64,000 nt of DNA from an uncultured Caulobacter sp. (GTDB lineage: Bacteria; Pseudomonadota; Alphaproteobacteria; Caulobacterales; Caulobacteraceae), in contig CALKHU010000135.1 in NCBI GenBank assembly GCA_937991555.1, positions 1,787 to 65,786 of the forward strand. Reading direction: 5' to 3'. This document shows, one piece after another, positions 50,589 through 64,000 of this stretch. The notes under the pieces were generated by a model that saw only the letters and a program-made list of their open reading frames with translations, had not been told where the DNA came from and ran no database searches. The translations under genes and the position numbers were made by a program. The number at the start of each line of letters is the position of its first letter. Position 1 is the first letter of the stretch.

Positions 50589-52355
50589 TCAGGACGGGCC
50601 CGGCGGCTCCGCGGCCGCGCGGCGCGTCGGGTCGGTCGACGGCGCGAGCCGGCCTTCCTCCAGGGCCAGGATCCGGTCGCAGACGGCCAGGCTTTCGGCG
50701 CGATGGGCGATGATCAGCAGGGTCGGCCGCGGCTCGAGCGCCATGAGGCGGGCGAGGACGGCCTGTTCCGATTTCACGTCGAGCGCGCTTCCCGCCTCGT
50801 CGAGGACGAGCAGCCGCGGTCGTCTCAGCAACGCCCGGGCGAGGGCCAGCCGCTGGCGCTCGCCGCCCGAAAGCCGCGCGCCGCGTTCGCCGACGGGAGT
50901 GTCGAGACCCAGGTCCATGCGCCGGACAAGGTCGTCCGCCCCGACCGCTTCCAGGACCGTCCAGAGGTCGGCCTCGCTCGCGCCCGGCGCGGCCCAGGCG
51001 AGGTTCCGGCGCAGGGTGTCGTGGAACAGGTAGGGATCCTGCGAGACATAGGCGACCTGGTCCCGCCAGGCGGTCCGGGCGGCCCCTTTCAGCCTCACGC
51101 CGCCCGCGCTGATCGCGCCCTCCTGGGGCTCGAGAATACCGGCCAGCAGGTCCGCGAGGGTCGTCTTGCCGGCGCCGGACGGCCCGCACAGGCCGACCGC
51201 TTCGCCGGGGTGCAGCACCAGGTCGACGCCGTCCAGGCAGGGTCGCCCATCGGCGTGCCGGTAGGCGACGCCGGCCGCCACCACCGGACCGTCCGGAATC
51301 CCGATGCCGGCGTCGGAGGGCGGCGACGGGCTCCTCGCCAGGTCCGCCGTCAGGGTCTGGAGCGCCCCGTAGGCGGGCAGGGCGTGGACCAGCTGCTGGA
51401 CCCCCTGCTGCAGCTGCGCGGCGGGTCCGCTCATCCGGGACAGGATCAGCAGCGTTGCGATCAGCGTCGGTCCGTCCGTCCCCGACCATACGCCGGCTGC
51501 CAGGACGACGACCCCTGTCAGGGCGGTGGCGGCGGCGGTGACCAGCCGCAGGTTGCTCTGCTGGCGCGCGAAGGCGAGCTGTCGGTCGACGAGCGCGTCC
51601 GCGTCGGCCTCGAAGGCCGCCACGAAGCGCGCCTGCAGGTTCTGGGCGAAGGCCAGCTTCAGTCCGCCCAGGAAGCGCGCGGCCGCGTCGGCCATCGTCA
51701 GCTGCCCTGCCGTCAGGGCTTCGCCGATCCGGCGGGCGCGCCGCAGGACCGGGAGCAGCAGGAGCGCGCCGACGACCATCACCGCCACGGCCGCGACGGC
51801 CATGCCGGGGGCGACCCAGAGCGCCAGGGCGGACTGCGCGGCCAGCACGACGACCGAGACGGCGCAGGCCATCAGCACATGGACGGCCCCGGCGACCTGC
51901 GCGATGTCGATGCCGAGCGCCTTGGTCACCCGCGCGTGGCGGAGGCCTGCGGCCTCGCGCCATTCCGCGCCGGCCAGCGCCCGGATGAGGCGCCGACGGC
52001 TGTGCTCGACGAATCCCGCCTGAAGACCCGCGACCTGCCGGTCGCGCAACGCCAGCAGCAGCGAGCGGACCACGACCAGCGCCGCGAAGCCGCCGACCAG
52101 GACCAGCAACTGCGCCTGACGGCCTTCGGCGCCGGTCACGGCGAAGGCGCGCTCGGCGATGACCTGGAGCTCGCCGCCCGCCGCACCGGTCAGCACGGCG
52201 ATGAGCGGGATCAGCAGCAGAAGCCCCACCCCCTCGACCAGCGCGCCGGCGAGCATCAGCGCCAGGGTCGTCGCGGCCTTCCAGCCGGCGAAGCGGGCCA
52301 GGTCGAGTGCGAAACCGGGGATCGTGGCGCGAAGCGCATCGCCGGCGGCGGTCAC
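50589..52355 (-). CDS. ABC exporter (fused TMD-NBD), RiPP-cluster transporter
   Basis: TM region plus GPSGAGKT, LSGGERQR, LDEA; GTG start after GAAG. Confidence 0.88.
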   Translation of the reverse strand: MTAAGDALRATIPGFALDLARFAGWKAATTLALMLAGALVEGVGLLLLIPLIAVLTGAAGGELQVIAERAFAVTGAEGRQAQLLVLVGGFAALVVVRSLLLALRDRQVAGLQAGFVEHSRRRLIRALAGAEWREAAGLRHARVTKALGIDIAQVAGAVHVLMACAVSVVVLAAQSALALWVAPGMAVAAVAVMVVGALLLLPVLRRARRIGEALTAGQLTMADAAARFLGGLKLAFAQNLQARFVAAFEADADALVDRQLAFARQQSNLRLVTAAATALTGVVVLAAGVWSGTDGPTLIATLLILSRMSGPAAQLQQGVQQLVHALPAYGALQTLTADLARSPSPPSDAGIGIPDGPVVAAGVAYRHADGRPCLDGVDLVLHPGEAVGLCGPSGAGKTTLADLLAGILEPQEGAISAGGVRLKGAARTAWRDQVAYVSQDPYLFHDTLRRNLAWAAPGASEADLWTVLEAVGADDLVRRMDLGLDTPVGERGARLSGGERQRLALARALLRRPRLLVLDEAGSALDVKSEQAVLARLMALEPRPTLLIIAHRAESLAVCDRILALEEGRLAPSTDPTRRAAAEPPGPS

Positions 52356-52435
52356 GGCGTCTTCGCCCTGACCCGGAGGCGGCGCCGTTCGATCGACCGC
52401 TTGATCCGGCGCCGCGATGCGGTCTTCATCGGGGC

Positions 52436-52681
52436 ATGATCCAGGTCGCTCACCGCTTCCTCCGCGCCCTCCGGGCCGACGCCGCGCTCCGCGCGCGTGT
52501 CGCGGATCTGGGTCCGGACGCCGGTCTGGACGACATCGCCGCCCTGGCCGCGGACGCCGGTCACGCCTGTGATCCAGAGTCGCTGCGGGAGGCCTGGCGT
52601 CAAGACTGGACGCTGCGCTGGCTGGCGAACGGATCGGCCACCGGGAACCGGGCCTCCAGCGCCCGCGCCAGCGACGAATAG
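52436..52681 (+). CDS. Nif11-like protein (81 aa)
   Basis: AHRFLRALRADAALRARV..LDDIAALAADAGHACDPESL matches the Nif11 leader pattern; Trp-rich tail WRQDWTLRW. Confidence 0.7.
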   Translation: MIQVAHRFLRALRADAALRARVADLGPDAGLDDIAALAADAGHACDPESLREAWRQDWTLRWLANGSATGNRASSARASDE

Positions 52682-53727
52682 CTCTGCCCGCCCTGGAAGA
52701 AGCTCCGGAAGAAGGCTTCGGGCCTGTCGAGAAAGATCGGCAGGATAAACCGGCGGAGCCGGTCGAGCTCGACGCCGATGGCGGATTGGACCCGGCGGCT
52801 GTGCTCCAGCCCGTCGTCGTCCGCCGTCGTCCCGGCGAGCTTGGCTGCGATGACCTCGCCGGCGATGGCGCCGCTGGCGAGCGCGTATCGTATCCCCTCG
52901 CCCAGGATCGGGTCGACCAGTCCCGCCGCGTCTCCCACCAGACAGACGCGCCGCGTGGAGATGGGGGCCGGGCCCTCGTAGAGCGGGATGGGGTGGCCGC
53001 GGCGGACCTGGCCGAGGATGACGCCCCTGGGCAGGGCGCGGTCCAGATAGGCGTCGAGCAGTCCGGGCATGCCGTCCCGGCGAGTCCACGACCCGATGCC
53101 GCAGGACAGGTGGTCCCGCTTGGGGAAGATCCAGCCATAGCCGCCGGGCGCGCAGGCGAAGTTGAAGCTCATCCGTCCGCCTTCGGCCTCCCAGCCCTCG
53201 GCGGTGACCTCGACCTCGGCGTCGATGGCCACGCCGGGTCGGGTTCGCCGGGAGAGGCCGACGGCGGCGGCCGTGCGTCCGGCCGCGCCGTCGGCGCCGA
53301 CCACGAACCGCGCGCGCAGCCGCTCGCCGGACCGGGCGATGACGGTGACGGCGTCGGCCTCTTCCTCGACATGCGCCACGCCGAAGTCATCGCGCAGCTC
53401 CACGGCGCCCCGTGACAACGCGCGCTCCACGATGTGGAGGTCGAAATCGCGGCGGCCCACCATCCAGGCGCCGTAGGCGCTGTCCTTGTCGACGGCCGGC
53501 CCGAAATCGAGCTGCCACCGCGAGGCGGCGACCTGCGCCTCGATCATCGGCATGAAGTCCCAGTCCAGCGTCGCGCGAACCGGCCCGGGCGTCAGCGCGC
53601 CACCGCAGGCCTTGTCCCGGGGCAGTTTGCGGGCCTCCAGGACCAGCACCCGCGCGCCGGCCTCGGCGAGCTTGAGCGCGGCCATCCCTCCGGCCGGACC
53701 GGTCCCGACGACGATGGCGTCATGCAT
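52600..53727 (-). CDS. Geranylgeranyl reductase-family FAD oxidoreductase
   Basis: GTGPAG, RDKACGG, GADG, GYGWIFPK and GDAAGLVDPILGEGI motifs. Confidence 0.88.
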   Translation of the reverse strand: MHDAIVVGTGPAGGMAALKLAEAGARVLVLEARKLPRDKACGGALTPGPVRATLDWDFMPMIEAQVAASRWQLDFGPAVDKDSAYGAWMVGRRDFDLHIVERALSRGAVELRDDFGVAHVEEEADAVTVIARSGERLRARFVVGADGAAGRTAAAVGLSRRTRPGVAIDAEVEVTAEGWEAEGGRMSFNFACAPGGYGWIFPKRDHLSCGIGSWTRRDGMPGLLDAYLDRALPRGVILGQVRRGHPIPLYEGPAPISTRRVCLVGDAAGLVDPILGEGIRYALASGAIAGEVIAAKLAGTTADDDGLEHSRRVQSAIGVELDRLRRFILPIFLDRPEAFFRSFFQGGQSYSSLARALEARFPVADPFASQRSVQS

Positions 53728-54754
53728 GGGCGGTCAGCTCCGGACTGCGGACAGGGGCGAGCGCGAGGTAGGCCTTGGCCGGCAGGGGGGCGCCGTCCTT
53801 CAGGTTCAGCTTCACGTGGCTGATGAAGGCGCTGAACGCGTCGAGGCGACCCCTTGCGGTGGCGAGGTCGCGCGAGATCAGCGTCTCGGGCCAGGGGAGG
53901 GCGCGGTCCATCGGCGTCACGGCCCCCCGCCAGCCGGCCGCGGCCTCGACCCGCGCCGGCTCGGCGAGACCGGTCCCGGCCAGCCAGTCGAGCAGCGCCG
54001 ACTGGGCCGCTTCTCCCGCCTCGTCGCGCGGATGGATGACCTCGAAGCCGAGGTCGGGGGCGAGGGCCGGGGTGAAGCCCAGCACCAGACGCGTGGCGTC
54101 CCCGACCAGTGGTCCCCGCCCCATCAGGTCGGCCAGCCGGTCGATGTCGCCCGGCCATCCCGCCTCGGCCAGGAAGCGCCGCACCCGGTCGGTCTCCAGA
54201 TCCCGGATCATGCAGCGGAGCTGGGCGTCGCGGGACAGCATCACCCCGACCATGCGGCCCGGCGTCAGGCCATGGGCGACGGCGATCTCGAGCGTCGAGA
54301 CCAGCGTCCTCCAGCCCTCCAGGCCTTCGGGCGCCATCGCCGCCACGAAGCGTTCTCCCGCGGCGATTCCGTCGAGGACCGTGCCGTCGAAGGCCGCGAA
54401 GACGGCGGGCGCGGCGACGCCCTCGTCGTGTTCCAGGCCGATCTCGGTGATGGCCGCGAGTGCGGGATCCTCCGCCCAGGCGCCGGCGAAGGCCGCGAGG
54501 CGCGACCATGCGGGACCGCTCTGCCGCCGCGCCAGCGCCAGCAGCCTGCCCGCCCCGCCGTCCGCGGCGAAGAAGTGCTGCGACACGTCCACGGCCCGGT
54601 CGCTTCCCGCCAGGCGGCACTCGAAATAGACCACCACGTCGGCCGCCACCGCCGGCGCGGCCCGCCGCAGCGTGCCGGCGCCGCCGTCCGGCAGCAGCGC
54701 CGCGGGGAACCGGGCCAGCGCCAGGTCCATCGTCTGGACAGCCAGGACGCTCAT
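53720..54754 (-). CDS. Hypothetical protein, possibly an ABBA-type prenyltransferase
   Basis: Translationally coupled on both sides; FECRL..D, LEHD, GVMLSR..R, GFE and SHVK..KAYL pattern. Function is an inference. Confidence 0.5.
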   Translation of the reverse strand: MSVLAVQTMDLALARFPAALLPDGGAGTLRRAAPAVAADVVVYFECRLAGSDRAVDVSQHFFAADGGAGRLLALARRQSGPAWSRLAAFAGAWAEDPALAAITEIGLEHDEGVAAPAVFAAFDGTVLDGIAAGERFVAAMAPEGLEGWRTLVSTLEIAVAHGLTPGRMVGVMLSRDAQLRCMIRDLETDRVRRFLAEAGWPGDIDRLADLMGRGPLVGDATRLVLGFTPALAPDLGFEVIHPRDEAGEAAQSALLDWLAGTGLAEPARVEAAAGWRGAVTPMDRALPWPETLISRDLATARGRLDAFSAFISHVKLNLKDGAPLPAKAYLALAPVRSPELTAHA

Positions 54755-55707
54755 GCGAACAGGCGCCGCCGCAGAAGGGCGGCCATCGCCGGCAGGGCGT
54801 CGAGGTCGTCGGGCAGGCTCAGCGTCCGGATCGGCGTGGCCGCGGCGACTCGCGCCAGCAGGGACAGCTCCTGCCGCCGCTGTTCGCGCCCGGGCGTGAT
54901 CATCCCGATCAGGTTGGCCGCCAGTTCCGCGAGCCGCTCGCCGGGCGGCAGATCCTCGATCAGCGGCTCGGCCAGACCGGCGATGCGCGGCGTCATACGG
55001 TAGATGGCGTGCAGTCGAACCGGCGTCGCCTGGAACCGGGCCGGATCGTGGACGCTGACCTTGGCCATCTCGGTGGTGGTCGGAAACAGTGTGGTGGCCG
55101 TGGCGTCGCTGACGCCCAGCCTGCGCGCCGAGTCCGGCCACATGCGCAACCGGGCCCGCCCCGGCTGCACCAGAAAGCCGTCGGCGTCCCCGACCAGCCC
55201 GACGAGGTCGTCAGTGACCAGCCGGCAACCCTCGTCGATCAGGGCCCAGGCCAGGCTCGACTTTCCCACGCCCGACGCGCCCATCAGCGCGATGGCCCGT
55301 CCCTCCGCGGCCAGGGCGGTGGCGTGCACGCAGGGTCGACCCGCCAGCCTGAGGGCGCGCCCCAGGATCGGTCCCTCGATCAGATTGGCGATTTCGGCGT
55401 CGGTCTCGCCTTCGCCGGCCTGGACGGTGATCTCGCACCCGTCACTGCGGATGCCGAAGTCGGCGACATGTCCGCGATAGTCATACCGCAGTCGGTACCA
55501 GCCGCCGTCGGACGAGCGCCAGTACTCGACCTTCGCCCAGTCGGGCGTCAGCTCGGACCCTTCGGGATGTTCGAGCCACTCCAGTCCGTCAGCGGGCGCG
55601 CCCCGGCGAATGCAGATCACAACGTCCGCAACGCCTGCGGCGTCCAGCAAACCGGACAGCGCGATCTCGCTCGCGACCTCCGCCGCGCCCAGTCGGTAGC
55701 GGCGCAT
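54751..55707 (-). CDS. HPr-kinase-like lasso peptide kinase
   Basis: VHATAL, GASGVGKSS Walker A and TDD; directly downstream of the precursor. Confidence 0.85.
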   Translation of the reverse strand: MRRYRLGAAEVASEIALSGLLDAAGVADVVICIRRGAPADGLEWLEHPEGSELTPDWAKVEYWRSSDGGWYRLRYDYRGHVADFGIRSDGCEITVQAGEGETDAEIANLIEGPILGRALRLAGRPCVHATALAAEGRAIALMGASGVGKSSLAWALIDEGCRLVTDDLVGLVGDADGFLVQPGRARLRMWPDSARRLGVSDATATTLFPTTTEMAKVSVHDPARFQATPVRLHAIYRMTPRIAGLAEPLIEDLPPGERLAELAANLIGMITPGREQRRQELSLLARVAAATPIRTLSLPDDLDALPAMAALLRRRLFA

Positions 55708-55725
55708 GACGGGAAGGGCTGGCGT

Positions 55726-55863
55726 CTAGGACGTGTACGAGCCGGGGCCGTTGGCGTCGTTCGGCCCGTTGGTCGTGGCCGTGTTGGTCATGCTGCGGAT
55801 CGTGCCATGTTCGGTCAGGCGCGGCGCCTGGTACGGCATCTTCTTGGCAGGTTGTTCCGACAT
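55726..55863 (-). CDS. Lasso peptide precursor (A): 27-aa leader plus core TATTNGPNDANGPGSYTS
   Basis: Leader YQAPRLTEHGTIRSMTN = Y(-17)xxP(-14)xL(-12)xxxG(-8)xxxxxT(-2); Asp at core position 9; follows B1/B2. Confidence 0.9.
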   Translation of the reverse strand: MSEQPAKKMPYQAPRLTEHGTIRSMTNTATTNGPNDANGPGSYTS

Positions 55864-55940
55864 GAGCTTCCCCAGTAAGCCTTCGTGGTCGACGGTAACT
55901 GCCGCGGCCGGGGCACCCGAGCGCGCGCGTCGGTTGTCAT

Positions 55941-56384
55941 TTAGCCGCTGTTTGTCGCTCTGCGCCAGAGGCAATTGTAGGTGGCGTCCAGGTCCGCAGG
56001 TTCGTTGACCGGCTCGCCGTCGATTTCAACCCAGGCATGGGCGTCGAATTCGCCCACGGTCCGGGTTCCCAGGCAGAGATCGGCGGCGATCCCCCGTCGC
56101 CGCAAGGAACCGGCGAGCAGCAGCGCGCGGGGCAGGCAGCGGGCGTCGAACGGCATGCGGTCGGCGATCCGGCCGATGGCGCGGGCCTGGGCTTCGGCCA
56201 GGGGTCTCGGCTCCAGCCTGTTCGGGCGCGGCGGCGGCAACCGGTCGGCCAGCCGCCAGACAATGCTCGCCGACCGCTGCAACCCGAGGCTGTGCACCAG
56301 GAGCGACATGGCGCCCAGGGCCGCCGCCACCGGCGCGGCCTGGACGAGGGCCTTCAGCCTACCCGGCGGCGACGAGGAGGCCAT
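55941..56384 (-). CDS. Lasso leader peptidase (B2, transglutaminase-like)
   Basis: CLPRAL..LRRRG..G..AHAWVE Cys/His motif. Confidence 0.92.
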   Translation of the reverse strand: MASSSPPGRLKALVQAAPVAAALGAMSLLVHSLGLQRSASIVWRLADRLPPPRPNRLEPRPLAEAQARAIGRIADRMPFDARCLPRALLLAGSLRRRGIAADLCLGTRTVGEFDAHAWVEIDGEPVNEPADLDATYNCLWRRATNSG

Positions 56385-56649
56385 GGTTGCGGAGCTCGAT
56401 GGCCAGCCTGGCGATGTCCTGCTCGATCGTCTCCAGCGGCGCGTCGTAGACTTCGGCGACGGCCCTGGCGGCGGCGCCGATGGTCTCGGCGGTCTCCATC
56501 GCCTGCCACATCCGGGTGCCGACCTCGTCGAGCCCGAAGTAGGTCTCGGTCTCGAGGTTCAGCAGGGCGGCGTTTCCGGCCACCTCCTGGAACAGGACGT
56601 AGTCGGGAACCTCGGCCTTTGCGCCCAGAATAATTTCGATCTCGGTCAT
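56359..56649 (-). CDS. RiPP recognition element (B1, PqqD family)
   Basis: LLNLETETYFGLDEVGTRMW..Y..DI..L..GLL pattern. Confidence 0.92.
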   Translation of the reverse strand: MTEIEIILGAKAEVPDYVLFQEVAGNAALLNLETETYFGLDEVGTRMWQAMETAETIGAAARAVAEVYDAPLETIEQDIARLAIELRNHGLLVAAG

Positions 56650-56666
56650 TGCTCCTCCGCGTTGGG

Positions 56667-56695
56667 GCTATAGGCTTGCGCGCCAAAGGCTGCAA
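56667..56695 (-). promoter_or_regulatory. Sigma70-like promoter TTGCAG-N17-TATAGC for the B1-B2-A-kinase operon
   Basis: Read on the minus strand just upstream of the GGAGGAG RBS of B1. Confidence 0.55.
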
Positions 56696-56712
56696 TCGGG
56701 CTGTAGAAAACC

Positions 56713-58545
56713 ATGGCGCGCGACACCCCGGGGGACCATGCGAGGCTCGACCTCTGCCTCGTCGTTCCCCCGTTCGACCAGATCAAGATTCCGCTGCTCG
56801 GGCCCGCCATCCTGACCGCCGCCTGCCGGAATCGCGGCCTGTCGGTGAAGACGGTCTTCGGCAGCATCATGCTGGCCGCCCGGGTCGGCTATGAGCCCTA
56901 CAAGGCGGTGTCGCGCTACTACCTCGACTGCATCGTCGGGGAACGGTTGTTCCGGCCCCATGCCTGGCCGCCGGAGATCGACGCGACCCTTCCGCCGCTG
57001 CCGCCGCTGGCGGAGAAGCCGGCCGCGCTCTGCGACCTGCTGGCCCCGCAGATCGGGCCCTTCGTCGACGACTTTGTCGCCGCGGTCCTCGCCGACCGCC
57101 CCCGTATCGTGGCGATCACCTCGACGTTCGAGCAGATCATGGCCGGCTCGGCCCTCGCCTGGCGGATCAAGCAGGCTGACCCCGATATCTGCGTGGTCAT
57201 GGGCGGCGCAAACATCGCCTCGCCGATGGGCCAGGCCTTCGCCCAGGTCTTTCCATGGGTGGACCATTTCTTCGCGGGCGAGGCGGACGTCGCCTTTCCG
57301 GACTTCTGCGAACGGCTTGTGCGCACGGGCGAGCGTCCGGTCGAACGCGTCGTGGAATGCGCGCCCATCGAGCGGATCGACCAGGCGCCGGCGCCGGACT
57401 TCAGCGATTTCATTGCGGCGTTGCGCCAGGCCCAGGCGGACGGCCGCCTGCCGGCGGACCTGCCCGAAGGACTGCCCCTGGAGAGCTCTCGCGGCTGCTG
57501 GTGGGGCATGAAGCACCACTGTGTCTTCTGCGGCCTGAACGGCGACACGATGGACTTCCGCATCAAGCCGCCCGAGCGGATGATCGGCGAGATCCGCGAC
57601 CTCGTCGAGCAGTGGGACCCCGACCGGCTGTCGTTCACCGACAACATCATGCCGATGGGCTACCTGCAGACCGTACTGCCGGAACTGGCGACCTGGGAGC
57701 GCAAGCCGGGACTGTTCTACGAGGTCAAGGCGAACCTCCGCTTCGACCAGCTCGAGCTGATGCGGCGTGCGGGCATGGTGCAGATCCAGCCGGGCTTGGA
57801 GTCGCTGTCGACCAACGTGCTCCGGATCATGCGCAAGGGGGTCTCGGCCCTGCAGAACCTGGCGCTGCTGCGCGACTGCGCCTCGCTGGACATCTACGTA
57901 CTGTGGAACATCCTCTACGGCTTCCCGGGCGAGACGACGGCGGACTACGCCGGGCTGCCGGACCTCTTCCCGAAGATCGAGCATTTCCGGCCGCCGCAGT
58001 ACTGCGTGCCGATCGTGATCGACCGCTTCAGCCCCCACCACCGCGACCCGCAGGCGTTCGGCATCGACTCCTATGCCCCGTATCCGGGGTTCGCCGCGCT
58101 GTTCCCGCCCGGAGCGCCGGTGATGGATCTCGCCTACCACTTCATCGGCCAGCACACGACGGACTTCATGCGGGACGAGGGCCTGGTCGCGGCGGTGCAC
58201 GCGGCTTACGACGCTTGGACCGAGCGGTGGGCCGGTCGCCCGCCGATCCTCGCGGCGCTCGACATCGGCGGCGCCGTGGTCGTCGCCGACACGCGGCGGG
58301 CGGCCGTCCAGCGCATGACGCCGCTGTCGCCGGCGGCGGACGACCTGCTGCGCCACCTCGAAAAGCCCCGCCGACGCGACAGTCTCGACCCGGCCTCGGC
58401 CGAGGTGCTGGCCGACCTGCTGGCGCGCCACTTCGTCATCGAGCACGAGGACCTGCTGATCAGCGTGGTCACCCGCCCGCCCGCGAAGGGGCAGGCGCCG
58501 GCGCTGACCCGACCGGCGCGGAGCGCCGTGCCGACCGTCGTCTGA
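56713..58545 (+). CDS. B12-dependent RiPP-maturation radical SAM C-methyltransferase
   Basis: MGGAN..GEAD cobalamin domain, ESSRGCWWGMKHHCVFCGLNG, YEVKANL, QPGLESL, WNILYGFPGE and DRFSP motifs. Confidence 0.88.
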   Translation: MARDTPGDHARLDLCLVVPPFDQIKIPLLGPAILTAACRNRGLSVKTVFGSIMLAARVGYEPYKAVSRYYLDCIVGERLFRPHAWPPEIDATLPPLPPLAEKPAALCDLLAPQIGPFVDDFVAAVLADRPRIVAITSTFEQIMAGSALAWRIKQADPDICVVMGGANIASPMGQAFAQVFPWVDHFFAGEADVAFPDFCERLVRTGERPVERVVECAPIERIDQAPAPDFSDFIAALRQAQADGRLPADLPEGLPLESSRGCWWGMKHHCVFCGLNGDTMDFRIKPPERMIGEIRDLVEQWDPDRLSFTDNIMPMGYLQTVLPELATWERKPGLFYEVKANLRFDQLELMRRAGMVQIQPGLESLSTNVLRIMRKGVSALQNLALLRDCASLDIYVLWNILYGFPGETTADYAGLPDLFPKIEHFRPPQYCVPIVIDRFSPHHRDPQAFGIDSYAPYPGFAALFPPGAPVMDLAYHFIGQHTTDFMRDEGLVAAVHAAYDAWTERWAGRPPILAALDIGGAVVVADTRRAAVQRMTPLSPAADDLLRHLEKPRRRDSLDPASAEVLADLLARHFVIEHEDLLISVVTRPPAKGQAPALTRPARSAVPTVV

Positions 58546-58548
58546 TCC

Positions 58549-59733
58549 TTGGCCGATCGGTCCCCCGAGCTTGGGCTGCTGGCGGCCTGCATGCTCTGGC
58601 CGCCGTCCGAGGCGCGGTCGCGGGCCGTGGCGCAGGCCGCGGCCGACCCCGCTCTCGACTGGGAGGCCTTCGCCAGAACCGTCGACCGGCACCGCGCCGC
58701 CGCCTTCGCCCATGACGGCCTGACCCGGGCGGGCGCGACCGCCGCGCCGGCCGCCTTCCGCGCAACGCTGGCGCGGCGGGCGGCGGCCGACGGCCTGATC
58801 AACAGGGCCTACGTCCGCGAAGGCGAGCGTCTGGTCGCGGCGCTGCGCGACGCCGGCCTTGAGGTCATGGTCCTGAAGGGGGCCGGGCTGGTCGCGGCCG
58901 CCTACGGCGATCTGGGCGTGCGCCAGATCCGGGACCTCGACCTGCTGGTCCGACCGGAGGCCCTGGGCCGCGCCGGCGAGATCTGCGAGGCCGCCGGATA
59001 CGTCCGCCTGCAGCCGCCGCCGGGGTCGACGCCGGCGCAGCTGGCCGCCTGGATGCGGTGGCGCAAGGATATCCTCTATCGCCACGGCGCGAGCGGCCTG
59101 ACCCTCGAACTGCACTACCGCCCGACGCTCAGTCCCGGGCTCGCGGCGCGGCTGGACCTGTGGAGCGCCGGCGCGGAGGTGACCCTGCCGGGCGGCGGGA
59201 CGACGCCGGCCGCCACGGGCGAGGCCCTCTACGCCTACCTCTGCCTGCATGGCGGCTTCTGCGCCTGGTTCCGGCTCAAATGGCTTGCGGACATCGCCGC
59301 CCTCACGGCGGGCCTGGCGCCGGACGCCCTCGCGGGCCTGCACGAGGCCGCCCGGGCGCGAGGCGCGGGGCGTGCCTCCGCCCAGGCCCTTCTGCTCGTC
59401 GAGCAGGTGTTCGACCGGCCGCTTCCGCCGGATCTGCGGCGCAGGATCGTGTCCGACCGGACGGTTCGCCGCCTGGTCCGTTTCGCCCTGGCGGTGCTGT
59501 CCGACCCGCGCGAGCCCGAACAGGTTCCCTTGCGCTCGACCGCGATCCAGCTGCACCGGCTGCTGCTGATCGAGGACTGGCGCGACCGGATCGAGGACGT
59601 CCGCGGCATGCTGGTCGACTGGCCGTTGGTCTTCGCCCTGCCGCTGCCGCGACCGCTCTGGTTCCTCTACCCGCTGCTCAGGGGGCCGGCCTGGGCCTTG
59701 CGCAAGCTTCGCCGCCGCAGGCCGTCGTCATGA
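58549..59733 (+). CDS. Nucleotidyltransferase family protein (lasso-cluster type)
   Basis: LKG..Y..R..RDLDLLV, ELH and H..WFRLKWLADI motifs. Confidence 0.85.
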   Translation: MADRSPELGLLAACMLWPPSEARSRAVAQAAADPALDWEAFARTVDRHRAAAFAHDGLTRAGATAAPAAFRATLARRAAADGLINRAYVREGERLVAALRDAGLEVMVLKGAGLVAAAYGDLGVRQIRDLDLLVRPEALGRAGEICEAAGYVRLQPPPGSTPAQLAAWMRWRKDILYRHGASGLTLELHYRPTLSPGLAARLDLWSAGAEVTLPGGGTTPAATGEALYAYLCLHGGFCAWFRLKWLADIAALTAGLAPDALAGLHEAARARGAGRASAQALLLVEQVFDRPLPPDLRRRIVSDRTVRRLVRFALAVLSDPREPEQVPLRSTAIQLHRLLLIEDWRDRIEDVRGMLVDWPLVFALPLPRPLWFLYPLLRGPAWALRKLRRRRPSS

Positions 59734-61657
59734 CCGGCTCGAACACCTCGGCGACCCGACGGGCGCCGCGGTCGTTGAGGTGGCCCGCGTCGCGATAGAA
59801 GGCTCCGCGCGCGTCGGACAGCCGGCAGATCGACCCGTCGCACAGGCGCAGCCCGGGCCTCAGCAGGCGCAGGAGGCCTCTCTGCTGCAGGGCCTCCGCC
59901 GGCGGACGCTGCCCCGACAACTGCATGCGGTACTCGTCCAGCCCGATCGTCGCCGACGGGGGGCGGCCCAGGACCGCCGCCTTGGCCAGGCGATCGGGCG
60001 AGGCCGAGAGCGCATAGGGCGTGTCCTCCACGAAGTAGACGGTCACCCCCAGCCGGGTCAGCGCGGCCACCGTCCGTTCGAGCGCCCTCCGGGCCTCGGC
60101 CGCCGCGAGGTACGGCTGACGCCGTCCGTGCTCGCTCCAGACGCCGCGGAAGTCAGGACGGATGAACGGGCCCATGGCGGGGCCCCATTTGCCGGCCAGG
60201 ATCACAGCGGCCGGACGCTCTGCGGCGATCACCTCCAGCACCCGGCGGTTGCGCGCTTCGCAGGCCGGCCCCGAACCTGAAAAGCCGATCAGCGGCGCGC
60301 AGCCGAGTTCGGTGAGATCGAAGCCCGCCGCGCCGCGCCGTGTCGCGAGGTCATCCAGCCCGGCCCGGTACATCGCCGCATGGGAGTCGCCCCACAGAAT
60401 GAAGGTCGGACGCGCCCTCGGATCCCCGAGCCGGCACTCCGCCCCGGCGCGTGTTTCGAGCGGCCGGCCGGCGCAGGGAAAGTCGGCGCGGGAGTCCGGA
60501 TCGGCCAGCCGCAAGACCGGCTCGGCGAACCGCTGGGGCAGGCCGTCCAGGGCGCGCAGCGCCACGCCGTAGAGCCCCAGGACGATGCTGCTCGCCGACA
60601 GCAGGACGATGAGCCTTCTGCGTGACAGCCAGCCGTCCGGCCCCCGGAACGGCTGCTCCACATACCGCCAGGAGAGCCAGGCGACCGGGACCGCGACCGC
60701 GGCCATCGCCATCCGCACCGGCGTCGCCCAGGCTTCGTCGAGCATGTAGTAGCCGCCGAACACGATCAGCGGCCAATGCCAGAGATAGAGCGAGTAGGAG
60801 ATCAGCCCGAGCCCGGCCAGAGGTCGAAAGGCCAGCAGGCGGGCGACCCGCGAGCCGGGGGCCTGCGTCCCGTGAATGACGAGGGCCGCGCCCAGGCAGG
60901 GCGCGAGCGCGTTGACGCCGGGAAACGGGTCTGCCGGGGTGAGCCGCCAGATCGCCCAGACGATGGCGGCCATCCCGGCCGCCGCCAGCGCGTCCCCGGT
61001 CCGGCGGCCCGGCGCCGGCAGCACCCCGAGGGCCAGCAGGGCGCCGAGCAGGAACTCCCAGGCGCGCGACAGCGGCGAGTAGAAGGCCAGGTTGGGCGCC
61101 TGTCCCGCCGTCCACACGCTGTAGCCGAAGGACAGGGCCGCGATCAGCCCGAGCGCGGCGACGAGCGTCGGCCGGCCGCGCCGGGCCGCCAGGACCAGCA
61201 GGACGGGAAAGATGAGGTAGAACTGCTCCTCGATCGACAGGGACCAGGTATGCAGCAGCGGCGCGGAGCCGCTCGCCATCCCGAAGTAGTCGTTCCAGCG
61301 GGCGAACTGGACGTTCGAGAGAAAGACGATCATCGCCGCGAGGCTCGAGCCGAACCGCTGCAGGTCGGCCGGCAACAGCATCAGCGCCAGACCCCCGCTG
61401 ACGGCCAGCATGAACAGCAGGGCCGGGAGGATCCGGCGCGCCCGCCGCTCGTAGAAGTCCGCGAAGGAGAAACGTCCTCCGGCCCGGTCGGCCAGGATCA
61501 GGCGGGCGATGAGATAGCCTGAGATCACGAAGAAGACGTCGACCCCGACGAAGCCGCCGGACAGTCCCGGCGCGCGCGCGTGGAACAGCACCACGGCCGC
61601 CACGGCGATTCCCCGCAGGCCGTCGATCTCGGGTCGTTGACCGGGCCGGGACGCCAT
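59678..61657 (-). CDS. Acyltransferase-3 / SGNH fusion (OafA-like)
   Basis: IDGLRG, GVDVFFVISG, HTWSLSIEEQFY, SYSLYLWHWP, GDSHA and DAGH motifs. Confidence 0.92.
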   Translation of the reverse strand: MASRPGQRPEIDGLRGIAVAAVVLFHARAPGLSGGFVGVDVFFVISGYLIARLILADRAGGRFSFADFYERRARRILPALLFMLAVSGGLALMLLPADLQRFGSSLAAMIVFLSNVQFARWNDYFGMASGSAPLLHTWSLSIEEQFYLIFPVLLVLAARRGRPTLVAALGLIAALSFGYSVWTAGQAPNLAFYSPLSRAWEFLLGALLALGVLPAPGRRTGDALAAAGMAAIVWAIWRLTPADPFPGVNALAPCLGAALVIHGTQAPGSRVARLLAFRPLAGLGLISYSLYLWHWPLIVFGGYYMLDEAWATPVRMAMAAVAVPVAWLSWRYVEQPFRGPDGWLSRRRLIVLLSASSIVLGLYGVALRALDGLPQRFAEPVLRLADPDSRADFPCAGRPLETRAGAECRLGDPRARPTFILWGDSHAAMYRAGLDDLATRRGAAGFDLTELGCAPLIGFSGSGPACEARNRRVLEVIAAERPAAVILAGKWGPAMGPFIRPDFRGVWSEHGRRQPYLAAAEARRALERTVAALTRLGVTVYFVEDTPYALSASPDRLAKAAVLGRPPSATIGLDEYRMQLSGQRPPAEALQQRGLLRLLRPGLRLCDGSICRLSDARGAFYRDAGHLNDRGARRVAEVFEPVMTTACGGEACARPRPAP

Positions 61658-61665
61658 GCCGCCGG

Positions 61666-62991
61666 TCAGGGTCTGCGGCACCAGAAGTGATACATGCCGG
61701 AGAACAGCTCCGGCTCGCGCCACTCCGTCGCCGCCCAGGCGTCGAAGTCGCGGAACCACGGGTCGTGCGGATGCTCGGACCGGTACCGGGCGCGTCGCGT
61801 CTTCCCCGGAAGCTCGAAGCCGAGGAACTCGAGGCCGAGCGACTCGATCCCGCGCCGGATGCGCGGCACGTCGAACAGGTCCTCGTGCCGGTTGAACAGC
61901 AGGTCGTGGACGCCGCCCAGCGAGGCGAAGTCCGGCGACCAGGTCAGGGCGTGTACAGGGTCGGCGAGCAGCCGCCCGCGTGCTTCGCGCAGCAGGTCGT
62001 CATCCACCGGCCGGTCCAGCAGGTCGGCGATCCGGTGCTGGGCCGACCGGACGCGCAGCCGGGCCAGCTTGCTGTAGACCATGATGCTCATCACCCCGCC
62101 CGGCTTCAGGGCCTCCACCAGCCTGGCCCAGTCCGCTTCCGGCGAGGGCAGGTGATGCAGCACGCCCGAACAGCTGATCAGGTCGAAGCGGCCCAGCGCC
62201 GGCGCATCGCGCAGGTCTCTCTGCTCCCAGCGGACGTTGGTGATACCCAGCGAAGCCCAGCGTTCGGCGGCATAGGCCAGGGACGCGGCGCTGAGGTCTA
62301 TGGCCGTGATCCGCGCTTCCGGCGCCCGCATGGCGATGAGCGCCGTCTCGCGGCCGGTCCCGCAGCCAGCGACCAGGATCGAGGGCGCCTCGGGCAGTTC
62401 GATCGGCTCCGGACCGAGCCTTGCGATCATGCCGGCGAGCGTGTCGCCGCGCGGCCTGGTGACCCTTTCCCAGACCGGATAGGGCCAGATTTCGTACTGC
62501 TCGGCGACCGCGCGCTTGACGGGGGACGGGTTGGCGATCGCCGGGCCAGGTCGGGGACGTTTCGGCAGATAGGCGGCGGCCAGCACGGCCCCGTCCGGTC
62601 GCGCGAGCGCGGCCCGCTCCTCGTCGTCGAACGGCCAGGCGCCGCCATTGCGCGCGGCCTGGGCGACAAGGGCGGCCGTGAGCGCCGGGAAACCGGCCGC
62701 ACGGCCGGACAGCAGCAGCCAGCGACGCAACGCTGTCAGCGCCCGTTCCGAGGGCGGATGGGTGACGCATGTCTCGGTCAGGAAGGCCAGGGCGGGGCCG
62801 CTCGCCTCGACCCTCCGCGCGCCCTCTTCGTCGGGAGAGGGGAGGCGCCCGGTCTCGGCCAGGATTTCCCAGCCCGCGCGGGCCGGCTGGATCGGGTCCA
62901 CGGCCGGGTCGGTCGCCAGGGCGCGCAACCCATCGAGAGCTGCGTCCGTCGCGCCGGCGCCGGCCAGTCGGCGCGCCTCATCGAGTTCCAT
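61666..62991 (-). CDS. Class I SAM-dependent methyltransferase
   Basis: QYEIWPYP, LVAGCGTG, IDLS, SGVLHH and LKPGG motifs. Confidence 0.88.
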   Translation of the reverse strand: MELDEARRLAGAGATDAALDGLRALATDPAVDPIQPARAGWEILAETGRLPSPDEEGARRVEASGPALAFLTETCVTHPPSERALTALRRWLLLSGRAAGFPALTAALVAQAARNGGAWPFDDEERAALARPDGAVLAAAYLPKRPRPGPAIANPSPVKRAVAEQYEIWPYPVWERVTRPRGDTLAGMIARLGPEPIELPEAPSILVAGCGTGRETALIAMRAPEARITAIDLSAASLAYAAERWASLGITNVRWEQRDLRDAPALGRFDLISCSGVLHHLPSPEADWARLVEALKPGGVMSIMVYSKLARLRVRSAQHRIADLLDRPVDDDLLREARGRLLADPVHALTWSPDFASLGGVHDLLFNRHEDLFDVPRIRRGIESLGLEFLGFELPGKTRRARYRSEHPHDPWFRDFDAWAATEWREPELFSGMYHFWCRRP

Positions 62992-63008
62992 CACGGCACG
63001 CTCTTCGG

Positions 63009-63074: not shown

Positions 63075-64000
63075 ATGACGGGCTTTGCCGGCTTCATCGG
63101 GCCCCGGGGGGCGGCCCCGGACCCCGCCCTTTCACAGGCCATGCGCGCCGCCATCGCCTACATGGGCCCGGACCGCCGGGACCACTGTGAGTCGGACGGC
63201 GTCCTGCTCGCCCAAGCCCTGCTCGCCACCACGCTTGAGGAGCGCGGCGACCGCCAGCCCCTGACCTTCGACGGTCGCGCGCATCTGGTCGCGGACGCCC
63301 GAATCGACGGCAGGTCCGCGCTCATCGCGGAACTGCAAGCCGCCGGACGCCGGGTGGCCGCCGATGCGCCCGACAGCGCCCTGATCCTGCATGCCTGGCA
63401 CGTCTGGGGAGAGTCCGCGCCGGAGCACCTGATCGGCGATTTCGCCTTCGTCGTCTGGGACAGCGAGGCGCGCCGCCTGTTCGCCGCCCGTGACCATTTC
63501 GGCAGCGTGCCGTTCTACTTCGCCAGGGTCGGCGAGACCTTCCTGTTCGGCAACGCCGTGCCCGCCCTGCTCGCCCATCCTGGCCTCGACCGTTCCCTGA
63601 ACCCGGTGGCGGTCGGCGATTACCTGATGTTCGGCCACAGCCTCGACCAGGGGTCCGGCTTCTACCGCGCCATCGACCGGCTGCCGCCGGCGCACAGCCT
63701 GTCGTTCGCCGACGGGACCGTCCGGATGCGCCGTTACTGGACGTTGCCGCCGCCCGACTTCGAGGCCGCCCGGACGCTGCGTCCCGACGCCCTGGCCGAG
63801 CAGTTCGGGGCGATCCTGGCGCAGGCCGTCAGCGACAGGGTCCGCCTCGACAAGGTCGCCACCACGCTCAGCGGCGGAATGGACTCGACCCTGATCACCG
63901 CCCTCGCCATGCGCGGATCGTCGGCCCGCATCGACAGCTACTCCTTCGGCGGCGACTGGCTGACGCCCGACGTCGAGCGGCACTGGGCCTGGCGCTGCGC
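63075..64000 (+). CDS. Asparagine-synthetase-like lasso cyclase (C), truncated by the window edge
   Basis: Not in the ORF track. MTGFAG (no Cys nucleophile)..GPD..ADARID..GDFAF..ARDHFG..LSGGMDS PP-loop. Confidence 0.88.
   Translation, partial: MTGFAGFIGPRGAAPDPALSQAMRAAIAYMGPDRRDHCESDGVLLAQALLATTLEERGDRQPLTFDGRAHLVADARIDGRSALIAELQAAGRRVAADAPDSALILHAWHVWGESAPEHLIGDFAFVVWDSEARRLFAARDHFGSVPFYFARVGETFLFGNAVPALLAHPGLDRSLNPVAVGDYLMFGHSLDQGSGFYRAIDRLPPAHSLSFADGTVRMRRYWTLPPPDFEAARTLRPDALAEQFGAILAQAVSDRVRLDKVATTLSGGMDSTLITALAMRGSSARIDSYSFGGDWLTPDVERHWAWRC

Follow-up and report, generated by a model that had tools for sequence, protein, structure and literature searches.

The question raised by this locus is whether a lasso peptide precursor that ends in serine is phosphorylated on that residue by the kinase encoded beside it, and whether the phosphate is then extended by a nucleotidyltransferase encoded nearby. 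The locus lies in a stretch of 64,000 nucleotides (the window; G000:C135:1787-65786, where G, C and L are our working labels for genomes, contigs and loci) of a Caulobacter-like alphaproteobacterial metagenome-assembled genome (3.18 Mb, 88% complete, ~72% G+C). It is a lasso peptide cluster with a split B protein, in which the leader recognition protein B1, the leader peptidase B2, the precursor A, the kinase K and the cyclase C are all found. The initial annotation of the window had singled out the Ser-ended precursor, the HPr-type kinase next to it and the nucleotidyltransferase (N), all three of which were placed correctly (Table 1), and what it stated of the paeninodin kinase and of the nucleotidyltransferase of pseudomycoidin agrees with the literature. 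Taken as a whole, the explanation in which the final residue, Ser45, is phosphorylated and subsequently elaborated in an N-dependent manner is considered moderately probable.

The gene of kinase K starts 18 nucleotides past the stop codon of the precursor. Its product carries the Hpr_kinase_C domain, and in an alignment of 18 sequences His128, Lys149, Asp166 and Asp167 are invariant together with the P-loop Gly143–Ser150; a profile of the catalytic segment of this alignment matches the HPrK/P structure 1jb1 in the PDB with an E value of 6.1e-9. A His-Lys-Asp-Asp motif is shared by lasso tailoring kinases and is essential in them (PMC9266682). Asp166 and Asp167 are taken as the counterpart of Asp158 and Asp159 of PsmK on the basis of this motif, PsmK itself standing outside the alignment. 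Such kinases, of which PadeK, ThcoK, PsmK and SyanK have been studied, are described as working on the linear precursor and as requiring a C-terminal Ser (PMC9266682, PMC8498205, PMC6993621). At the sequence level, K has all that marks the PadeK/ThcoK/SyanK/PsmK group, namely the domain, the motif and a Ser-ending precursor within a lasso cluster. Close homologues of K bear the NCBI labels Caulobacter, Sphingopyxis, Brevundimonas and Sphingomonas, and ~35 metagenomic homologues are 60–71% identical to it. A scan of metagenome contigs with the single kinase sequence returned two spurious short matches only, a purpose for which an alignment query would be better suited.

The substrate side is conserved as well. 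The precursor reads ...PYQAPRLTEHGTIRSMTN-TATTNGPNDANGPGSYTS-stop, with the C-terminal end GPGSYTS, and its leader follows the class II lasso pattern Y11-x-x-P14-x-L16-x3-G20-x5-T26, which in the canonical register places Thr at position −2. The precursor family assembled here comprises 20 sequences, of which 11 come from the protein collection (one being 98% identical to that of the window), eight from genomes and one from the window itself. In all 20, the last three residues are Y-(T/V)-S, the final Ser being invariant; the residue at −1 from it varies (T/V), as does that at −3 (S/N/T/F), which argues that the final Ser is under a constraint of its own. The invariant residues of the core are Asp36, Gly39, Gly41, Tyr43 and Ser45, and the window core is devoid of Trp. 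With 20 conserved precursors and a gene order that recurs in seven other genomes, the pairing of this precursor with a kinase is not a chance observation. Phosphorylation of the Ser45 side chain by K, as claimed by the initial annotation, is likely in view of the strong homology, the intact kinase motif and the universal final Ser. In this first step of the proposed route, K would phosphorylate Ser45 on the linear precursor, ahead of leader removal and ring closure, and might do so repeatedly, as has been described for PadeK, ThcoK, SyanK and PsmK.

The designation of this residue as Ser18, which was also part of the initial annotation, is less secure: the Ser is indeed terminal and invariant, but the number depends on an uncertain cleavage site. 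In the canonical register, with Thr26 at −2, the core starts at Thr28 and spans 55729–55782, Ser45 becomes Ser18 and the ring would be closed between Thr1 and Asp9. Asp36 of the window would occupy core position 9, 8 or 7 for a start at residue 28, 29 or 30, respectively. However, four of the 20 precursors (A2, L003, L096 and L098) have one extra residue ahead of the invariant Asp, for which the canonical start would imply a ring of 10 residues. Starting at residue 29 would give rings of eight or nine residues, and starting at residue 30 rings of seven or eight, in which case −2 is taken by Thr28 (by Ile in one sequence); Ile at −2 has been reported for one published case (PMC10368454). Since the four longer precursors cast doubt on canonical cleavage, the core numbering, including Ser18, is provisional. 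In a wider search, a precursor hunt by regular expression in 80 distant kinase loci produced 11 candidates, of which several are doubtful, and did not pick up those of Bacillota, too thin a set to judge whether a kinase always goes with a terminal Ser. Six of the distant loci (L004, L005, L006, L009, L026 and L049, from Acidobacteriota, Gemmatimonadota and Chloroflexota) hold good lasso leaders with the ends TSF, GAG, SRM, TSG, SAD and EKA.

The second step concerns N, of which the gene lies 3 kb from that of K and the product belongs to family PF14907. This family also matches genes that take the place of psmN, flanked by B2/K and D (the exporter gene), in the Bacillota loci L030 and L039, a comparison made at the level of family membership. 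Among 30–32 cluster-associated relatives of N, Lys110, Gly111, Asp129, Asp131, His234 and Asp248 are invariant, and Asp129-x-Asp131 is taken as the counterpart of Asp134/Asp136 of PsmN. For the AlphaFold2 (AF2) model of N, with a predicted local distance difference test (pLDDT) score of 93.8, the nearest folds found by Foldseek are MenT1 (E 4e-5), LnuA, ANT(2'')-Ia (5cfs/4xje) and FKRP; the ANT(2'') structures 5cfs and 4xje are the structural relatives reported for PsmN (PMC6993621). The family assignment, the invariant Asp-x-Asp and the pol-beta-type nucleotidyltransferase folds, including ANT(2''), thus make N look intact and PsmN-like. Judged from the predicted model, the structural relatives of N allow either nucleotidylyl transfer to an oxygen nucleophile or an FKRP-like transfer of a phospho-alcohol from a nucleoside diphosphate-alcohol.

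The chemistry that is proposed for N is modeled on pseudomycoidin, where in E. coli the deletion of psmN abolishes the hexosylated phospho-pseudomycoidin, which is restored by complementation with psmN and not with its D134A/D136A mutant (PMC6993621). By analogy, N would act on the Ser45 phosphate through its Asp129-x-Asp131 metal site, adding a nucleotide-derived or sugar-type group, just as PsmN is needed for the hexose on the pseudomycoidin phosphate. The accompanying acyltransferase with AT3 and SGNH domains (AT3-SGNH) may in turn acylate the group added by N; it is seen only with N in cis, in two genomes, and is a candidate partner of N.

The distribution of these genes was compared in seven related clusters, six found among 127 searched species genomes of the same genus and one from Sphingomonas rustica. 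The radical S-adenosylmethionine (SAM) gene, B1, B2, A and K are present in all seven, and a 344-residue protein of no known family, a reductase, a Nif11-domain protein and C (64–71% identical) are encoded in all six whose contig extends far enough. In the eight clusters, counting the window, the radical-SAM C-methyltransferase gene and B1 are always arranged back-to-back. Only the window and G431 have N, the AT3-SGNH gene and D as parts of the cluster; the AT3-SGNH orthologue of G431 is 65% identical, and the other related clusters do not contain one. The SAM methyltransferase gene is present in the window, G431 and G295, the cluster of G295 being without N, and in G461, G439 and G428 the radical-SAM gene is directly followed by C. 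In a concatenated tree, the window and G431 occupy two deep branches, while the N-less clusters form one tight clade. In G439 and G428, N is encoded outside the cluster. An N homologue (58–59% identical) sits beside a D homologue (43–45%) at an unlinked locus of G295 and G443, where both genes are missing from the kinase-prenyltransferase cluster. Because N is absent in cis from sister clusters, some of whose genomes encode it next to an exporter at another site, the second step is best regarded as optional; that N extends the Ser45 phosphate as such an optional elaboration is a tentative proposal, based on analogy, with nearly even prospects.

In the genus as a whole, this kinase family is found in 15 genomes and PF14907 in 16 (15 above the family cut-off), with 13 holding both; PF14907 occurs in 13/15 kinase-positive versus 3/112 kinase-negative genomes, which are related and do not constitute independent samples. 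Two members of the genus (G440 and G411) have ordinary K-N-D-C-B lasso clusters, and lasso clusters with a kinase and a nucleotidyltransferase also exist in Sphingomonas and Erythrobacter. Farther afield, an N homologue lies at most 10 kb from the kinase gene in 33 of the 80 distant kinase loci, and N is directly beside D in 13 of the 20 loci that hold both. Additionally, genomes that bear the kinase-prenyltransferase cluster contain one or two additional distant kinase genes from this family (G295:C1:218105, G428:C134:19599, and G461:C5:136748 and C7:98083), which possibly belong to other peptide clusters.

Several points weigh against a phosphate that is extended by N. The enzyme of the window has Cys238 where 88% of its relatives have His, and only one of the seven related clusters contains N. 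The adjacency of N and D, together with the unlinked N-D pairs, links N with export no less than with the kinase. The authors of the pseudomycoidin study allowed that a host glycosyltransferase might add the hexose (PMC6993621), and in B. subtilis the deletion of lppN had no effect, for which a missing partner was proposed (PMC13381572); the chemistry of the PF14907 family is still unsettled in the literature. Some distant kinase loci have lasso-type precursors that are not Ser-terminated, and the terminal-Ser rule may not be valid for every kinase subfamily. Lastly, the kinase is constantly accompanied by a predicted prenyltransferase and an enzyme resembling prenyl reductases, which were not considered in the initial annotation and which may share the C-terminal target. 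The annotation's extension of the phosphate by N is therefore borne out in part: family, Asp-x-Asp motif and ANT(2'')-like fold favor it, but the absence of N from six clusters and the silent lppN deletion do not.

The gene encoding the 344-residue protein overlaps the stop codon of K by four nucleotides and the reductase gene by eight, and is translationally coupled to both, K upstream and the reductase downstream. In each of the six related clusters whose contigs extend far enough, the three follow one another directly. The protein has no Pfam or NCBIfam match even at an E value of 10 and no sequence match in the PDB; 676 homologues of it were collected. Its AF2 model (pLDDT 94.5) shows the element H-H-E-E repeated five times, which is the alpha-alpha-beta-beta (ABBA) arrangement of the prenyltransferase (PT) barrel. 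In VIA-align, the model is superimposed on CymD with a Z score of 16.2 and a root-mean-square deviation of 4.0 over 291 aligned residues; there are 130 chains at Z ≥ 8, and each of the 50 listed entries is a prenyltransferase. Only ABBA prenyltransferases appear among the matches listed by Foldseek and VIA-align, with CymD followed by MpnD, NphB, AmbP1 and DMATS enzymes. By fold only, the protein is thus predicted to be an ABBA prenyltransferase outside the described sequence families. Ten longer homologues include five fused to a squalene-hopene-cyclase (SQHop)-like domain and three fused to a CMAS-like methyltransferase. The pairing with a reductase suggests lipidation followed by saturation as the simplest reading of the modeled enzyme and its neighbor. 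Both proteins probably act on the same short conserved tail as the kinase, G-P-G-x-Y-x-S, in which the prenyl acceptor could be Tyr43, a tail hydroxyl or, most speculatively, the Ser45 phosphate.

The small Nif11-domain gene faces the reductase gene in convergent orientation and shares 82 bp with the 3' end of the latter; it is conserved in each of the seven relatives amenable to a check, and the homologue in L003 matches PF07862 with 27.3 bits. The encoded protein shows the motif AWRQDWxLRWLA in the genus, where it is Trp-rich, which is not the case in Sphingomonas. Its tail is probably not a core peptide, as the G431 copy stops right behind this motif. The idea that it might be a second, Ser-terminated substrate of the kinase was rejected, since its C-terminal end is not conserved and one copy ends early. 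An 83-residue open reading frame (ORF) on the minus strand (52352–52603) was likewise rejected as a gene despite its better G+C periodicity at third codon positions (GC3), since it has no homologues and the plus-strand Nif11 ORF is conserved.

These observations bear on other readings of the locus. N might leave the peptide phosphate alone and instead serve the ABC (ATP-binding cassette) exporter, in an export-coupled step or in self-protection, or an envelope glycan together with AT3-SGNH. This is rather unlikely, even though N neighbors D in 13 of 20 loci, free-standing N-D pairs exist in G295 and G443, and the lppN deletion is without a phenotype (PMC13381572); the effects of psmN deletion, complementation and the D134A/D136A mutation on hexosylated phospho-pseudomycoidin (PMC6993621) speak against it, as does the genome-by-genome co-occurrence of PF14907 and the kinase in the genus. 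Fusions of AT3 and SGNH domains usually acylate extracytoplasmic glycans, and here AT3-SGNH is encountered only alongside N, which suits a glycan target. Phosphorylation could also be transient, activating Ser45 or another tail Ser/Thr for either elimination or recognition by an enzyme that acts later, so that the product is phosphate-free. A 2026 review lists a dehydroalanine-containing lasso peptide from a hybrid system, and the poor processing of the unphosphorylated precursor in the linear polyphosphorylated peptide (LPP) system (PMC13381572) indicates that a phosphate can be a processing signal; however, the cluster is without a lyase-like gene and the characterized lasso kinases all yield stable phospho-products, and this reading is accordingly given very little credence.

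A different role for the phosphate follows from the constant neighbors of the kinase. The phosphate on Ser45, or the invariant Tyr43, would accept an isoprenoid that is attached by the prenyltransferase-like enzyme and saturated by the reductase, producing a lipidated, possibly phospholipid-like lasso peptide, with N in a peripheral role. The overlapping and consecutive genes, the unambiguous ABBA fold (Z 16.2, pLDDT 94.5), the relatives fused to terpene-cyclase-like or CMAS-like domains, which fit the NctPC type, and the invariance of Tyr43 and Ser45 in a core without Trp all speak for it. Against it, the sequence assigns no acceptor residue, and the prenyltransferase could target the conserved Nif11-domain protein instead, which is Trp-rich in the genus. 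We know of no precedent for prenyl transfer to a phosphate, which also counts against it. The characterized relative NctPC prenylates Trp, of which this core has none, and lipidation of this kind is held to be unlikely. A composite of the two chemistries is quite improbable: the Ser phosphate would be a shared handle for two optional branches, a saturated isoprenoid anchor placed on or beside it by the prenyltransferase and the reductase and an acylated polar head group made by N and AT3-SGNH, leading to a membrane-anchored or surface-displayed lasso peptide. Phosphorylation of Ser45 followed by N-dependent elaboration remains the preferred explanation.

The features of the cluster are compiled in Table 1; gene calling for the window used GC3 periodicity. 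On the minus strand, the order is B1, B2, precursor, K, 344-residue protein, reductase and exporter D. The radical-SAM gene is on the plus strand, divergent from B1, and is followed by N after three nucleotides; beyond N are the AT3-SGNH and SAM methyltransferase genes, both on the minus strand, and finally C on the plus strand. That the cyclase is missing from the cluster was considered and rejected, as its gene was found at the window edge, where it starts at Met103 of a long ORF and extends 880 bases past the window (L001:2076-3881). The annotated start of the AT3-SGNH gene overlaps the methyltransferase gene by 94 nucleotides, and the true start is probably more internal. Between positions 56500 and 59500, the G+C content rises from ~0.68 over the radical-SAM gene to ~0.76 over the adjoining N gene, which would be in keeping with a separate origin of each gene.

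Table 1. Genes of the lasso peptide cluster, with positions in the window, and the unlinked exporter-PF14907 pairs of two related genomes.
Feature	Position	Strand	Evidence
Lasso precursor peptide A, 45 residues	55726..55863	-	ORF; homologues; weak hits with lasso leader models of NCBIfam
HPr-kinase-like lasso tailoring kinase K, 318 residues	54751..55707	-	PF07475, 34.5 bits (cut-off 33.3)
PF14907 nucleotidyltransferase N (PsmN/LppN family), 394 residues	58549..59733	+	PF14907, 138.8 bits (cut-off 31.2)
Lasso leader peptidase B2	55941..56384	-	PF13471, 83.8 bits; NF033537 lasso_biosyn_B2, 77.9 bits
Lasso B1, PqqD-type leader recognition	56359..56649	-	PF05402, 54.4 bits
Lasso cyclase C	63075..64000 (window edge)	+	Best NCBIfam match NF033535, 248.5 bits, under its cut-off
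B12-binding radical-SAM C-methyltransferase for peptides made by the ribosome and modified after translation (RiPPs)	56713..58545	+	TIGR03975, 524.8 bits (cut-off 281.85)
Predicted ABBA-fold prenyltransferase, 344 residues, no family match	53720..54754	-	AF2 model; structure searches
Geranylgeranyl-reductase-family flavoprotein	52600..53727	-	TIGR02032, 207.1 bits (cut-off 158.8)
Small Nif11-domain gene	52436..52681	+	PF07862, 22.9 bits (cut-off 23.8); conservation
ABC exporter D, permease/ATPase fusion	50589..52355	-	PF00005 and MsbA/HlyB-type NCBIfam matches
AT3-SGNH acyltransferase, convergent on N	59678..61759	-	PF01757 and PF19040
Class I SAM methyltransferase with a 200-residue N-terminal extension	61666..62994	-	Methyltransf_12/25
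Unlinked exporter-PF14907 pairs	L111 7581-10638 (G295:C1); L113 2346-5238 (G443:C49)		Identity to window D and N

The combination of K and N on a Ser-terminated precursor has been called 'typical' of paeninodin-like lasso clusters (PMC13381572). As the route by which a kinase and a nucleotidyltransferase modify a C-terminal Ser is already accepted for lasso and LPP peptides, the locus adds a member and not a principle. The initial annotation had pointed to the occurrence of the route in an alphaproteobacterium; the host class is right, but this is no novelty, given the characterized SyanK and the K and N clusters of Sphingomonas, Erythrobacter and the same genus. What is distinctive is the kinase gene that overlaps a predicted prenyltransferase gene, itself overlapping a geranylgeranyl-reductase-family gene. 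The cluster is a richer variant, which adds a radical-SAM C-methyltransferase, an ABBA-like enzyme, a reductase, a Nif11 protein, a methyltransferase and AT3-SGNH; the lasso modifications listed in the 2026 review contain neither radical-SAM methylation nor long-chain prenylation, the sole prenyl entry being Trp prenylation. The tight coupling of kinase, prenyltransferase and reductase suggests a lipidated lasso peptide. Furthermore, the same cluster comes in natural variants within the genus: N lies in cis in the window and G431, next to an exporter at a separate locus in G295 and G443, and may be lacking altogether in G461, a genome of 76% completeness in which no N was found. These variants provide a ready comparison for the function of the unexplained PF14907 enzymes.

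Among known systems, the NctPC-type RiPP prenyltransferase-cyclases (Hubrich et al. 2024, via PMC13290415) are likened to the 344-residue protein by their description in the citing report: they form an ABBA barrel with little similarity to the cyanobactin prenyltransferases, and relatives of the window protein are fused to terpene-cyclase-like domains. According to the same account, NctPC geranylgeranylates Trp (PMC13290415), whereas the window protein stands alone, paired with a reductase, without a cyclase and beside a core that lacks Trp. The LPP clusters, lppA-K-B-S-D-N (Popov et al. 2026, PMC13381572), have the same set of K, RiPP recognition element, D and N, with N beside D; they employ a signal-peptidase-like protease, have no cyclase and give linear products, in contrast to the window, which has B2 and C. 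SyanK/SyanA of Sphingobium yanoikuyae ATCC 51230 and PadeK/ThcoK (Zhu et al. 2016, via PMC9266682 and PMC8498205) likewise represent His-Lys-Asp-Asp tailoring kinases, which in the secondary descriptions (poly)phosphorylate the C-terminal Ser of the linear precursor, and SyanK is alphaproteobacterial like the kinase of the window; those descriptions, on which the comparison is based, mention no prenyltransferase, reductase or radical-SAM enzyme in the SyanK, PadeK and ThcoK clusters. The pseudomycoidin cluster of Bacillus pseudomycoides, psmC-A-K-B1-B2-N-D (Zyubko et al. 2019, PMC6993621), is from a different phylum, with Bacillota homologues of N and K that are 21–29% and 24–36% identical, respectively (best tblastn segments). 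It has N between B2 and D, whereas in the window N lies behind the radical-SAM gene, and it is without the radical-SAM, prenyltransferase-like, reductase, methyltransferase, AT3-SGNH and Nif11 genes. Nevertheless, it shares with the window the split B protein, a kinase beside a Ser-ended precursor, a nucleotidyltransferase with Asp-x-Asp and an ABC exporter.

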